DNA of 36,119 nucleotides, from IMG/VR virus record IMGVR_UViG_3300032257_000061, positions 1 through 36,119 of that record; one strand, 5' to 3'. The notes under the pieces were generated by a model. That model saw only the letters and a list, made by a program, of their open reading frames with translations, was not told the origin of the DNA and did not search any database. The stretch comes from a virus (taxonomy: Duplodnaviria > Caudoviricetes). Below are positions 2,998 to 33,628 of the stretch, one piece after another. The stretch's first letter is position 1. The number at the start of each line of letters is the position of its first letter. The position numbers and the translations under genes were made by a program.

Positions 2998-3023
2998 TTT
3001 TATACACCCCCTAAAATAACTCA

Positions 3024-3053
3024 TTGGCCAAAGCTTAATAACTGGTAGAGAAT
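3024..3053 (+). promoter_or_regulatory. Putative sigma70 promoter for a possibly leaderless transcript
   Basis: TTGGCC-18 nt-GAGAAT, with the ATG at 3060 only 6 nt after the -10 and no SD. Confidence 0.35.
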
Positions 3054-3059
3054 TACACC

Positions 3060-3209
3060 ATGAATATAACAATTGAAAGACAAGACGTAGCAGAGGCAAC
3101 CAATCAATTGCTTGATACTGTATGTTGCAGCTTAACCGCTCAACAAGAGCTAGAGTATCTAGAATGGTTAATTCTTACTTTAAAAGAGCGACAGGAGAAT
3201 GTCGAATGA
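3060..3209 (+). CDS. Small hypothetical protein (49 aa, not in ORF track)
   Basis: MNITIERQDVAEATNQLL...KERQENVE*; ATGA overlap with the recT start at 3206. Confidence 0.6.
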   Translation: MNITIERQDVAEATNQLLDTVCCSLTAQQELEYLEWLILTLKERQENVE

Positions 3210-4174
3210 GCAATGAAGCACAACAACTAGAAAATAGACCGCCTTGGCAATTAGCCTTAGCTGGTTCTAAAGATAAGTTTTTAGAGATTAACAAGGTAAA
3301 TAATTTTGTTAATTATGATACAGAGGCAATGTTTGCACTACAGCTAATCACTAAGAATGATTATCTAATGAAGATAGCAAATAATAATCCCAAGTCTTTA
3401 CGCAATGCAGTTATTAATATTGCTGCAATTGGATTAAGCCTTAATCCTGCTACTAGATACGCTTATCTTGTACCGCGTGATAATCAAGCCTGCTTAGATA
3501 TTAGCTATATTGGTTTAATTAAACTAGCTACCGATACAGGCTCTATTTTATGGGCTAGGGCTGAGTTAATACATGAAAATGACGATTTTATTTACAGAGG
3601 AGCAACACAGAAGGCCGATTTTGAATGCACTAAACCATTTGATAGAGGCGCTATTCTAGGCGTTTACTGTGAAGCAAAGACAAAAGAAGGTGATTATCTA
3701 GCTGGCGTTATGTCATTAAAAGAAATAAACGAGATTAAAGATAAATCACAAGGCGCAAATTCAAGCTTTAGCCCTTGGAATACGTTTTTCGGAGAAATGG
3801 CTAAAAAGACCATAATTAAGCGTGAGTCTAAAACATGGCCTAAAACTGATAAATCAGAGCGATTTGATAATGCTATTGAAGTAATTAACGAGCATGACGG
3901 TATAGACTTTAACGAACACCCGATTGTAAGAGCCATAGAGAAGCACAAAGACACAATTGATGTAGTTGTTGAGGCTTTGGCAAATGAGCGATACGAGGAG
4001 GCAGCAGAGGCTTATTTCGAGCTAACAAACGATGAAATGATGAGTATTAATATTTCACCAACTAAGTGCAAAGAATTGGGTATTGATGCGCCATTCACAA
4101 CGGCAGAGAAAAAGCTTATTAAAGAGTCGCTATCTCAATACCATCCAGCAAGATTGGTTAGTGAAGATGGCTAA
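3206..4174 (+). CDS. recT: RecT-family single-strand annealing protein (start moved from 3122 to 3206)
   Basis: AAIGLSLNP...AYLVPR...LDISYIGL, SPW..FFGEMAKKTIIKR..KTWP; AGGAG RBS before ATG 3206. Confidence 0.92.
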   Translation: MSNEAQQLENRPPWQLALAGSKDKFLEINKVNNFVNYDTEAMFALQLITKNDYLMKIANNNPKSLRNAVINIAAIGLSLNPATRYAYLVPRDNQACLDISYIGLIKLATDTGSILWARAELIHENDDFIYRGATQKADFECTKPFDRGAILGVYCEAKTKEGDYLAGVMSLKEINEIKDKSQGANSSFSPWNTFFGEMAKKTIIKRESKTWPKTDKSERFDNAIEVINEHDGIDFNEHPIVRAIEKHKDTIDVVVEALANERYEEAAEAYFELTNDEMMSINISPTKCKELGIDAPFTTAEKKLIKESLSQYHPARLVSEDG

Positions 4175-30515: not shown

Positions 30516-31101
30516 TTTACTTTCCCTTTACTGCTTCTTTTATCTTGTCGTTTATTAGCGTAGTAACTTTTTCAAACTTATTCTTTTTGAATTTCTCAAC
30601 TGCCGTAATTGCCGCGCTTAAAGCGTCTGAGTCTTTAGCTCCCTTAGCTAACGCCGTCTTGTAAACCTGATTGTAAACATAATCTATTGCGTTCATTGCT
30701 TGTCCTTACTGTTGTTTATTGCCGATAGTTTTAATAGCATCAAATATCACCGCGCCAACTATAAAAATAGCAGCCTCTACGCTATCGCCGTTGTAAGTCG
30801 ATATAAACGCGCAAAAAACAAGCACCCAAAATCCAAACATTCTGCCTATTGGTTTAACCTTCATATCCATTCACCTATTAATTAACCTAAAAAGGGTTCC
30901 AACTTCCAAAATCTAGCTTTGTAATAATTGAAGCAGCCAATGTCAGCAAAGCCAAACTTATAGACCCAGCCATAAATACATTGACCTCATATCCCAGCAT
31001 TATAAAAAATGAAATTGGGCCACTTATCATTGTTGCTAAAAACATTTTCATATTCTCTATCTCCTAACCTATGTTTAGTATCAGCCTATAATCAAGCTAA
31101 A

Positions 31102-31269
31102 TTACCAGCGACCCATTTCTTCATCATATGCAGATTGAGCCGATTCATTAGCGCAACTTCTATATTCTCGCTGCAATTTCTGTATTTCTTTGTTGTATTC
31201 AGCCATTCCTATTTCGCCGCTTGATAACTGATCTTCAAGGTATTGTTCTTCTTGCTCAAAATCATCCAT
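31102..31269 (-). CDS. Small acidic hypothetical protein (55 aa, not in ORF track)
   Basis: MDDFEQEEQYLEDQL...EEMGRW*; AGGAG RBS. Confidence 0.6.
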   Translation of the reverse strand: MDDFEQEEQYLEDQLSSGEIGMAEYNKEIQKLQREYRSCANESAQSAYDEEMGRW

Positions 31270-31355
31270 ATCTATCTCCTATTTAATTTCTATTAACAAT
31301 AATCCTATAATCTAACTATGTATAATTGATTGTGCTTATGGGGTATTACTAGAAT

Positions 31356-32003
31356 CTATACCTGAAACATATCTATCTGTGCTGTTTCCCGCTCAAATCT
31401 ATCTAGCGCCGCTTTGTAATAATCGTAGTCTAATTCCATTCCCACAAAGTCAAAGCCGCCGTAATGTGCTGCTATTGCGCTTGAACCGCTTCCTAAGTGG
31501 GTATCTAGTATTCTATCGCCTTCTTTTGCGTAGTTGGACAATAACCAATCGTATAGCTTTACTGGCTTTTGAGTTGGGTGAATTAAATCTGCTAACGCTG
31601 CGGGTGATCTACTACCTCCATTTTTTGAATATCGGAATATTTTGGCTGCACGATTAAAGCTAGAATAAGCAAGCTCAAAATCTGAAAAATCACTGTTATC
31701 AAGTTTTTTATCCCAGCATATCCACCCCATTGAAGGCCGCATATTATATGAAAAATAATTAATGCCCCAAATTATCTGATTTTTACTAACTCTAATTAAT
31801 TCTCTGAAATACTCTTTAGTCGGTGTTTCATTATCCCATTCTTTACGCTTATGATTAGCTTCTTTTTTCCCCCTTGTTCTTGCAGCTCCACCACTTTCGC
31901 CTATACCATAAGGCGGGTCTACACAAGCAAGATCGAAATAATTATCAGGATAACGCGCCATCACGTCCATGCAATCCTCATTAAGCAATTCTATTTTTGA
32001 CAT
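31356..32003 (-). CDS. DNA methyltransferase (N6-A/N4-C, beta-class motif order)
   Basis: DPPY near the N-terminus; HPTQKP..LY; ILDTHLGSGS SAM-binding motif near the C-terminus. Confidence 0.93.
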   Translation of the reverse strand: MSKIELLNEDCMDVMARYPDNYFDLACVDPPYGIGESGGAARTRGKKEANHKRKEWDNETPTKEYFRELIRVSKNQIIWGINYFSYNMRPSMGWICWDKKLDNSDFSDFELAYSSFNRAAKIFRYSKNGGSRSPAALADLIHPTQKPVKLYDWLLSNYAKEGDRILDTHLGSGSSAIAAHYGGFDFVGMELDYDYYKAALDRFERETAQIDMFQV

Positions 32004-32452
32004 AACACCTTCTCAATATTCAAATCAGATAGATACTTCCCACGAACTAGCGTATTTATGACCTCATCCCTATAAGTTCCGCGCATACTTTCGACCCTAA
32101 AGAACATGGTTTGCTTAATGTCTGAGTTGCGCATATAGCCTATTATTTTTGCATCAAGAGCCACAAGAGCAAAAATGTCACAACTATCATCTGTATGAAA
32201 AGATTTATTTTTCTTCCCGCACCGCTTAATATTGAATGCGTAGGTATTGTTATTATTTACCCTTTGAGGCTTCTGTTTGTGGGTTCTAGTAGTTTTAACC
32301 TGAACCTTTAATAATCTATTGCCATCATCCATAACAACGTCATACGGCAATCCTTGCTCAGATGGATAGGCTATAAAACCCTTTGCTATTAAGTCTGCAC
32401 AGACAAGATATTCGCCTGCTTTGCCTATTTGCATATCACTAATTACTTCCAT
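31991..32452 (-). CDS. PD-(D/E)XK endonuclease, homing-endonuclease-like (PDDEXK_5/I-Ssp6803I type)
   Basis: G.AGEYLV.ADL...G......Q.LPYDVV.D....L.KVQVKT...DIFALV. Confidence 0.8.
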   Translation of the reverse strand: MEVISDMQIGKAGEYLVCADLIAKGFIAYPSEQGLPYDVVMDDGNRLLKVQVKTTRTHKQKPQRVNNNNTYAFNIKRCGKKNKSFHTDDSCDIFALVALDAKIIGYMRNSDIKQTMFFRVESMRGTYRDEVINTLVRGKYLSDLNIEKVLCQK

Positions 32453-32471
32453 ATCTCTATACTCGTAAGGA

Positions 32472-32570
32472 CTAAGCGCTTATTGTACCACCAACTATCG
32501 CCAGATCAAAGCTATTAGCTGGCTGGCCTTTCATGTACGCCATACAATCCATATTTAACAAATCATTCAT
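32472..32570 (-). pseudogene. Orphan 5' fragment of a DNA methyltransferase
   Basis: MNDLLNMDCMAYMKGQPANSFDLAIV|GGTISA* aligns without gaps to the MTase N-terminus (14/23 identical) and diverges exactly where DPPY should start; AAGGA RBS. Confidence 0.85.
32482..32509 (-). promoter_or_regulatory. Putative promoter for the endonuclease-MTase pair
   Basis: TTGATC-16 nt-TACAAT with TGn extension (TGGTACAAT). Confidence 0.55.
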
Positions 32571-32583
32571 TTCAATTTATCCT

Positions 32584-32973
32584 TTATCTCTTGCATTGCT
32601 TCTTTGTGTGTTTTATCGCTGGCTTTAACTGCTGAGTTAGCGCCTCTCGCTCTTCCTTAATGCCATTAACGTAACCAGCAACGCTTTTACCGTGCTTTGT
32701 TATATCGTCCCTGTAACATGAGCAGCAGCGGGTTATCCAAGATTTAAACTCAAACTGAGCATTCATAAATACCTCGTTCCCATTCTGGAAGCCGTAAGCT
32801 GGCTTTTTATCATGGCCGCTCATGCAGCCGACTTCATACTTCCCTGTTTTATTATTCAGTACGCACATAAATACTAGATCGGTATGATTTGTGCATCCAT
32901 TCTTTCCGCATACCTCGTTATATCGTGGTGCTGTCTTTGCATCAGGTCTGTTGCTTTTCTTCTTGTCATACAT
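32584..32973 (-). CDS. Hypothetical Cys-containing protein after the replication initiator
   Basis: In-frame ATG at 32973 overlaps the rep stop; several Cys pairs. Confidence 0.55.
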   Translation of the reverse strand: MYDKKKSNRPDAKTAPRYNEVCGKNGCTNHTDLVFMCVLNNKTGKYEVGCMSGHDKKPAYGFQNGNEVFMNAQFEFKSWITRCCSCYRDDITKHGKSVAGYVNGIKEEREALTQQLKPAIKHTKKQCKR

Positions 32974-33628
32974 GGTATTTGTCCTCTGCAATCTTTGTAA
33001 AATTAGTTTGATTGGTTAGCCATTCAATATCAGCTCTAAATGGGGCGCGTCCGTTAGTAGGCTGAACCCTACCCATTAAGAAATCAGATTGACTCACGTA
33101 ATCAAAGAAGTTTTCCCAGTTTGTAAGCTCTTTCATATCCTCAGTGTATCTTTGCCTTATCTGGCCTTTTCGCTTTGGTGTTAGTTTTGCAATAGTCGGT
33201 AATTCAGGAAGTGTTTTATGATATAAATCAATTATTTTCTGATACGGTACTGGGTCAGCCTTCGAAGAAGGTGACAATATCTTTTGCTCTTCATTATCAC
33301 TATCACTATCATTCTTACTATCACTATCGGCTTTTCTGGGTTCTTTAATAACCGACTGGGTTTTCTCGGTTTCACTGGCTTTAGGTCTACCACCCTTTAA
33401 CCCATTGTTTTTATTGCGATCGCAGATAGTTTTATACTTTTCGTTGTCTCGCTCAAACTGAGACTTGAAAGGAAAGAATACAAGCTTAATTACTTCGTCA
33501 GTAGTTAACTCATCATCAACTTGATAGGATTTGATTGCTTTAAATAACTTGCCAGCTTGTTCATCACTTAGGCTATCTAGTATCCCAAGTGAGTCAATAT
33601 GTAGAATAAACGACTTTCGTTTTGTCAC
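32966..33628 (-). CDS. Replication initiator-like protein (DUF6291-type N-terminus)
   Basis: KSFILH.D....L..LSDEQAG.LFKAI..Y...N..NG.KGGRP, S/D linker, C-terminal SDFLMG.....F.ADIEWL....NF.KI.E.KY. Confidence 0.8.
   Translation of the reverse strand: MTKRKSFILHIDSLGILDSLSDEQAGKLFKAIKSYQVDDELTTDEVIKLVFFPFKSQFERDNEKYKTICDRNKNNGLKGGRPKASETEKTQSVIKEPRKADSDSKNDSDSDNEEQKILSPSSKADPVPYQKIIDLYHKTLPELPTIAKLTPKRKGQIRQRYTEDMKELTNWENFFDYVSQSDFLMGRVQPTNGRAPFRADIEWLTNQTNFTKIAEDKYHV

Follow-up and report, generated by a model that had tools for sequence, protein, structure and literature searches.

A free-standing endonuclease gene was found lodged at the A-[IV]-V-D-P-P codons of an orphan DNA methyltransferase (MTase) gene of a phage, and comparison of many such loci makes it likely that this cassette homes by gene-end replacement. 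The nuclease would cut unoccupied alleles of the MTase gene, and the recoded copy of the gene end that the cassette carries would escape cutting. Direct support was obtained for the anatomy of the locus, for the fold of the nuclease and the integrity of its catalytic residues, for the existence of an empty allele, for recent movement and for the loss of a codon pattern. The preliminary description of this DNA had proposed an element that sits at DPPY and restores the MTase by means of a diverged 5′ end, with no intron or intein; the anatomy, its recurrence and the empty allele argue for that proposal.

The window (the whole stretch of DNA that was analysed) is a complete phage record of 36,119 bp with direct terminal repeats. 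Its genes include those for terminase, portal, head and tail proteins, a replication initiator, a RecT-like annealase and a NinG/Rap junction nuclease. The last two are encoded on the plus strand (3122-4174 and 2141-2686, respectively) and are candidates for short-homology repair. Within the gene for the replication initiator, a tandem microrepeat that codes for Asp and Ser (33280-33345) attracts many unrelated contigs. The stub, nuclease and MTase belong to a run of small genes in the replication region, on the minus strand, with the following features.

32472..32570, minus strand: stub ORF, 32 aa, from the 5′ end of the resident N6/N4 MTase gene (phrog_67, E 7e-4)
32490..32495, minus strand: left junction, a V codon and then what is probably a mutated D codon; presumed midpoint of the target (from the sequence, the stub ends and locus L063)
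32482..32509, minus strand: predicted hybrid promoter (-35-like hexamer 32509-32504 in the stub, 16 nt, TG-extended -10 at 32487-32482 in the leader)
32453..32492, minus strand: 40-nt leader, common to the close cassettes L001 and L063
31991..32452, minus strand: PD-(D/E)XK endonuclease gene, I-Ssp6803I fold, 153 aa (PF11645; fold match 2OST)
31920..32003, minus strand: replacement MTase 5′ end, 28 codons ending in L-A-C-V; travels with the nuclease
31902..31919, minus strand: DPPYGI codons, catalytic motif IV; usual right boundary of cassette-shared sequence (per-codon identity in 13 close pairs)
31356..31901, minus strand: MTase body with the variable region and a C-terminal motif I, frame intact (PF01555, E 2.8e-15; phrog_67, E 2.6e-43)
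31348..31355, no strand: right edge of the variable locus in the phage population (alleles rejoin at 31348; unitigs break at 31319-31348)

The three ORFs lie where they were first placed on the minus strand (stub, 32570-32472; nuclease, 32452-31991; full downstream MTase, 32003-31356, 215 aa), in separate frames with stops. Codons 1-26 of the stub (32570-32493) correspond to an MTase N-terminus and end in L-A-I-V; six out-of-register codons and a stop follow. The ATG of the replacement end overlaps the final 13 nt of the nuclease gene. The equivalent Val codons of the stub and the replacement end, at 32493 and 31920, are 573 bp apart, in line with the original estimate of about 570 bp, and as was then noted this unit holds the leader, the nuclease and the second N-terminus only.

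The ungapped match of the stub to the N-terminus of the downstream MTase was recomputed with the same count as before, 14/23 residues (40/69 nt identical). Both segments match phrog_67, an MTase family, at the same profile positions. The stub is no chance resemblance: its score with a profile built from MTase N-termini is 62, and the highest score among 76 control regions is 24. Among relatives, the similarity to either N-terminal copy ranges from 8 to 20 of 23 residues. The value of 14/23 is therefore ordinary family-level similarity, and the two copies, though homologous, differ in origin and are not the product of a recent tandem duplication. In the close relative L063 the same leader is preceded by GTT GAT, where the window has GTT GGT; the codon of G27 in the window stub is therefore probably a mutated Asp codon. 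The claim that the stub breaks exactly at the DPPY codon thus stands to within about 3 nt of the Asp codon, as judged from these sequences, but the break is not provably inside that codon.

The region was compared with four sequencing runs. One contig of 353 nt (run X2, depth 5.8) matches 32494-32826, the end of the upstream gene and the stub, with 14 differences and one 7-nt gap; past the stub it continues as V-D-P-P-Y-G-I-D-A, with neither leader nor nuclease. The stub is therefore the start of the resident gene. The same run also holds pieces of the cassette at 99+% identity. The contig reaches 27 nt past the junction, and each allele is represented by one short contig. Over the DPPYGI codons 15/18 nt are identical between this empty allele and the window, and of the next 8 nt only 2 are. 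The empty allele therefore has another MTase body, and the 3′ body of the window may have come with the cassette rather than being resident. Half of an expectation about nuclease-free relatives was thus borne out, in that a stub-type N-terminus runs into DPPY; the other half was not, the sequence past DPPYGI being unlike that of the window (2/8 nt). In a third allele (X3), 32566 is joined to 31348 through 190 other letters. Related phage DNA thus carries three alleles of 31349-32565: the cassette, a plain MTase and the 190-nt replacement. A single contig of X1 spans the cassette with no differences; X1 is not independent and may be the source of the window.

Of 119 relatives of the window body, 26 were dropped as too short or lacking the motif; among the 93 that could be scored, the N-terminus was nearer the stub in 58 and nearer the replacement in 24, with 11 ties. 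An exact search of viral contigs for the stub end running into D-P gave 0 matches, and a search for sister phages by the upstream gene gave one weak match only. For the other direct cassettes, empty alleles were sought among 80 free MTase loci; two 167-nt body matches (84%) were obtained, none with the left flank.

For recurrence, 155 nuclease loci were fetched, the metagenome part being the best 80 of 280. The locus identical to the window was dropped, the window was added and the set was collapsed at 97%, giving 119 clusters, of which 105 had enough flank. These counts are not phylogenetically independent. With the profile of MTase N-termini, the 105 distinct loci divided into 43 with both stub and replacement (one of which, L069, lacks a downstream DPPY), 13 with a stub only, ten with a downstream MTase only and 39 with neither, six of the last being distant outliers; none of 76 control regions passed the test for stub and replacement. 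A model-free test, which asks whether a peptide that precedes the nuclease recurs after it, was positive in 64 of the 99 loci that were left once outliers had been taken out, and in 0 of 64 controls. One positive, L085, reflects a neighbouring MTase and not a duplication, and in 35/99 loci no duplication was detected. Of 62 stubs, 55 end at position -2, -1 or 0 as counted from the Asp. On these comparisons, the arrangement of stub, nuclease and replacement, whose recurrence the preliminary description had made a test of its proposal, is well supported as real and recurrent in phage and metagenome sequences. The same layout occurs in other MTase subfamilies (L032, L035, L038, L053, L104, L120 and L146), with the break at or before their DPPY.

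Several variant architectures were found. At ten loci (L026, L085, L093, L094, L100, L110, L116, L118, L122 and L123) the cassette is inverted, with the nuclease opposite to the MTase; the break is the same, L-A-I-[VI], and the recoded replacement start lies on the other strand. The rebuilt MTase is internally deleted in three of them (L085, L093 and L094). At seven loci (L028, L029, L039, L043, L068, L119 and L128) there is no repair: the nuclease takes the place of the middle of the MTase, and the stub, the nuclease and the last 20-40 MTase codons are retained. From these tail-only and deleted forms it follows that some lineages can do without the MTase, and that repair is common and not obligatory. 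MTase N-terminal sequence is carried by 30 of 119 nuclease homologues, in 19 of which it is joined directly at L-A-[IV]-V-D. In-frame fusions of stub and nuclease with no leader occur at L068, L078 and L088 and in proteins P0013, P0026, P0036, P0051 and others.

In ParB-MTase fusions (11 loci, one clade) it is the C-terminus that is replaced. The mirror-image form (L016, L017, L019-L021, L024, L086, L087 and L097) has, in this order, a shared replacement C-terminus, the nuclease, near 3000-3580 in most of these loci, and the displaced tail of the host gene. Nuclease-free L240-L244, L246 and L262 match the body of L019 at 88-92% and then its displaced tail at 87-94%. By this alignment the strict empty-allele test passes in the ParB form, the body being resident and only the end replaced. 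Recoding of the ParB form at D-x-F-G-G was considered and rejected: D-C-F-G-G is present in 14 nuclease-free alleles, and the change begins after I-A-C-E-Q. D-A-P-Y was found in seven nuclease-free alleles.

Movement of the cassette was followed in 13 pairs of loci with nucleases at least 84% identical. Per-codon identity is 0.72-1.0 through the replacement end and DPPYGI, and then falls at once to 0.18-0.51. In the pair L013/L014 the nuclease and leader are 100% identical, the replacement 93%, the stub 77%, the body 67% and the upstream DNA 55%; by these identities, one cassette has moved recently between different MTase genes. Between replacement ends, codon positions 1 and 2 are 96% identical and position 3 is 63% identical, and judged from its codons the replacement 5′ end is under purifying selection. 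Among 52 downstream MTases, the start is ATG in 51, overlap with the nuclease stop is found in 41, and 49 are full length or run off the contig end. Over 37 loci from across the family, Mantel-type distance correlations are weak and give no means of telling the parts apart (nuclease-replacement, rho 0.25; nuclease-body, 0.19; nuclease-stub, 0.16; replacement-stub, 0.31), and between stub and body correlation is absent (rho 0.08, p 0.12).

These data bear on an alternative that we consider improbable, namely classical free-standing homing with co-conversion, in which the mobile unit would be the nuclease together with a whole resistant MTase allele, the stub would be the left homology arm and the intactness of the MTase would be incidental. 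The window body is unlike that of the empty allele, the third allele lacks the MTase region, the tail-only and deleted forms point to a dispensable MTase, and stub and body are uncorrelated, all as co-conversion would have it. Against this, identity in the close pairs ends right past DPPYGI while the replacement is shared, which argues that the usual unit is the nuclease plus a 5′ end; the replacement, moreover, is under purifying selection and coupled in frame, and the ParB loci combine a resident body with a replaced end. Co-conversion overlaps gene-end replacement and differs from it mainly in emphasis.

Recoding of the replacement end before DPPY, a point of the original proposal, was systematic in the set. 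Among 63 distinct MTase genes that lack the nuclease, 59 have the pattern GCN RTN GTN GAY CC, as does one of 56 replacement ends (nominal Fisher p 7e-28; the genes are not independent); the nuclease-free set was found with the window's own MTase and is biased toward the replacement type. The first six bases of the pattern are present in 58/58 stubs. Nowhere in the window does the full pattern occur. The pattern is broken in no fewer than five ways: replacement ends read LACV, LAIC, LSCV, LALV, LCIV, LAIT or something else, for the most part according to the clade of the nuclease. Conservation in replacements is 0.86-1.0 at the D-C-M, D, L and DPPY positions. Replacements also diverge at F and D, positions -6 and -5 (0.39 and 0.48), so the limits of the inferred site are not fixed. 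The exception is L063, with a nuclease 91% identical to that of the window, in which the replacement keeps A-I-V-D-P-P and then has YL, not YG. Two nuclease-free MTases (L156:640-1040 and L161:2680-3080) share a GC-rich, repeat-like leader, which is followed by a start of the replacement type, L-A-C-V-DPPY; they may be resistant alleles from which the nuclease has gone or in which it was never present, or their context may be integron-cassette-like.

The nuclease had been assigned to PDDEXK_5, and PF11645 matches it above the Pfam cut-off (35.3 bits; cut-off 26.1; E 1.4e-8). A sequence search of the PDB returned 2OST (I-Ssp6803I) as sole match (E 0.0043). A structure model computed from 37 sequences has a pLDDT of 85.6, and in a fold search with this model the top four matches are all 2OST (best E 1.1e-7, TM 0.56-0.60). 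The candidate catalytic residues E14, D38 and Q51-x-K53, whose role we take to be as in the rest of the family, are invariant or nearly so in the family alignment; the E is kept in 117/119 and D..QxK in 118/119 homologues. The protein is thus, by sequence and model, a PD-(D/E)XK enzyme of the I-Ssp6803I fold with intact putative catalytic residues. NCBIfam gave no match over cut-off. Nuclease homologues form 1449 clusters among 1463 candidates. In 50,697 records of cultured phages there was one distant match, Klebsiella phage KO-TP1 (34%), adjacent to an MTase and with no stub, and a search of plasmids gave two weak matches. In L057, L058 and L238 (Klebsiella phage KO-TP1), a distant nuclease (34-37%) immediately precedes an MT-A70-like MTase that has D-P-A-W or D-P-P-W. 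In L055 and L148 the nuclease domain starts a 666-codon ORF, and in L092 and L095 a second nuclease ORF, GIY-YIG-looking by eye, lies between the PD-(D/E)XK gene and the displaced tail.

A nuclease beside an MTase could also be read as a type II restriction-modification pair that entered a related MTase gene through long target duplication, which would leave a stub; this we regard as very unlikely. Identical nucleases pair with different MTase bodies and persist where the MTase is deleted, so that the phage nuclease is not co-inherited with one cognate MTase specificity as in type II systems. The PADLOC defence models do not match the nuclease, and its nearest fold, 2OST, is that of a homing enzyme. 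The duplicated ends within one locus are about 54% identical and not near-identical repeats, which sets the cassette apart from long target duplication as treated in the available part of PMC2853133, and such a pair gives no reason for loss of the same codon pattern in 55/56 cases.

That a self-splicing intron or intein removes the nuclease, or that the layout is a neutral tandem duplication or an assembly chimera, is barely credible: I-Ssp6803I is itself intron-encoded (PMC3384342), but here the non-coding leader of only 40 nt has no room for a ribozyme, Rfam gave no match at E<=1 within 30800-33200, a Pfam scan found no intein domain, splicing would make the second N-terminus unnecessary, and for an artefact there is too much agreement between the intact X1 contig, the pieces in a second run and the layout in many independent assemblies.

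Promoters were predicted at the left junction. A sigma-70-like promoter scoring at least 10/12 is present in 54 of 110 leaders, against 3.7 expected from base shuffles. In 16/42 direct cassettes the -35 box lies over the target V-D or I-D codons, and 12/42 contain TAnnTTTG, a Bacteroidota promoter motif. The candidate of the window (9/12, with an extended -10) is not above chance when taken alone (six sites against 5.2 expected). A 10/12 promoter-like site over the MTase start (32016-31988) was not used, there being six such sites against 5.2 expected. A conserved leader hairpin or operator was likewise set aside as too weak, the mean inverted-repeat arm being 5.6 in 42 leaders and 4.8 in shuffles.

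Homing by gene-end replacement might then proceed as follows. In a co-infection or with a prophage, the nuclease would meet and cut an allele with GCN RTN GTN GAY CC. The break would be repaired from the cassette. On the left, crossing over would fall within the final stub codons; on the right it would fall within DPPYG or at a more distal point, in some cases past the whole MTase. The RecT-like annealase plausibly helps, a guess from its presence. Insertion would split the site, leaving its left half in the stub, followed by the leader, while in the rebuilt gene C, T, L or S substitutions would alter the left half, so that neither copy would be a target. The left-junction promoter, its -35 often taken from the target V-D codons, would transcribe nuclease and MTase, with the MTase start coupled to the nuclease stop. 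Gene-end replacement would thus take the place of splicing. From the patterns described above we infer that the V/D codons are cut, that the recoded end is immune, that recombinational repair uses short homology and that promoter and MTase are active.

A wider claim, which we judge about as likely as not, is that these loci represent a widespread, undescribed class of splice-free homing by gene-end replacement in phages. One PD-(D/E)XK family would hop between MTase genes in the phages of different bacterial phyla, with only the catalytic-motif codons as homology and a promoter made partly from target codons. Resistant ends would have re-evolved many times, the orientation would have flipped, and in ParB-MTases there would have been a switch to C-terminal replacement, the whole reshuffling MTase N-termini and specificity regions.

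I-Ssp6803I, the best sequence and structure match, is hosted by a cyanobacterial group I intron in a tRNA-fMet location. It has the same fold and size class as the window nuclease, which has no intron, is hosted by a phage MTase gene and is about 16% identical on structural alignment. As in homing enzymes of that type, a single conserved site was found here both occupied and empty, together with lateral movement; unlike enzymes encoded by group I introns, and unlike inteins, the window nuclease lies in no self-splicing RNA or protein element. I-Ssp6803I is a tetramer that recognises a 23-bp pseudo-palindrome (PMC3384342).

Close parallels in organization are fungal mitochondrial insertions. 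In Allomyces macrogynus atp6, Ophiostoma rps3 and Phlebia atp6 and cox2, a nuclease is inserted together with a duplicated, diverged gene end that is in frame and displaces the resident end (PMC4019555, PMC6279837). Both systems combine a nuclease with a diverged copy of the displaced gene end. The fungal insertions involve LAGLIDADG or GIY-YIG enzymes, organelles and C-terminal ends, whereas the phage cassette has a PD-(D/E)XK enzyme, is mostly N-terminal, has its own start and a predicted promoter, and is accompanied by population-level recoding at the site. The SXT (prfC) and dusA islands insert in the 5′ end of a gene and supply a new promoter and a diverged N-terminus, which in the dusA island is 61% identical over 35 aa (PMC8409611). 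A diverged N-terminus restores the target frame in both cases, the phage promoter being a prediction; the islands have an integrase and att sites and span tens of kilobases, and the phage cassette is 0.57 kb with a nuclease only.

Intronless homing is also known from T4-type seg and mob enzymes, which are intergenic and cut hundreds to thousands of base pairs away, and from Aeh1 mobE in nrdA, where the host protein is split into two polypeptides that reassemble (PMC2988022). All of these do without an intron or intein, and some insert in critical regions of the host gene. Unlike the T4-type enzymes, the window nuclease lies inside the MTase gene at its inferred site and is not intergenic with a distant cut, and duplication and replacement of a gene end is not described for the T4-type and Aeh1 systems in the available part of PMC2988022. 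A splice-free homing nuclease within an actinophage DNA methylase, the ShiLan HNH, has been reported (PMC11855218, PMC9957025). There, according to the parts of those articles available, an in-frame loop holds an HNH enzyme in another frame, from another nuclease family, with no stub and no replacement end. The available text of PMC10448857 and of PMC3384342 does not describe the phage cassette, and in the open-access literature no description of such a cassette was found at the level of titles and abstracts; subscription papers or supplements could mention one.

Gene-end replacement would be a further way for a homing nuclease to occupy its own target inside a gene, beside introns, inteins, intergenic sites and genes-in-pieces. 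The sequences predict both the target (the codons before DPPY) and natural substitutions that would give immunity, and the model is therefore directly testable. It would add over a thousand small I-Ssp6803I-like enzymes (1449 clusters) with inferable targets to a group for which one structure exists. It would also account for the presence in phage genomes of MTase stubs, short and without annotation, and of proteins in which MTase and nuclease are fused; a nuclease-MTase pair of this kind should not be classed as a restriction-modification system.
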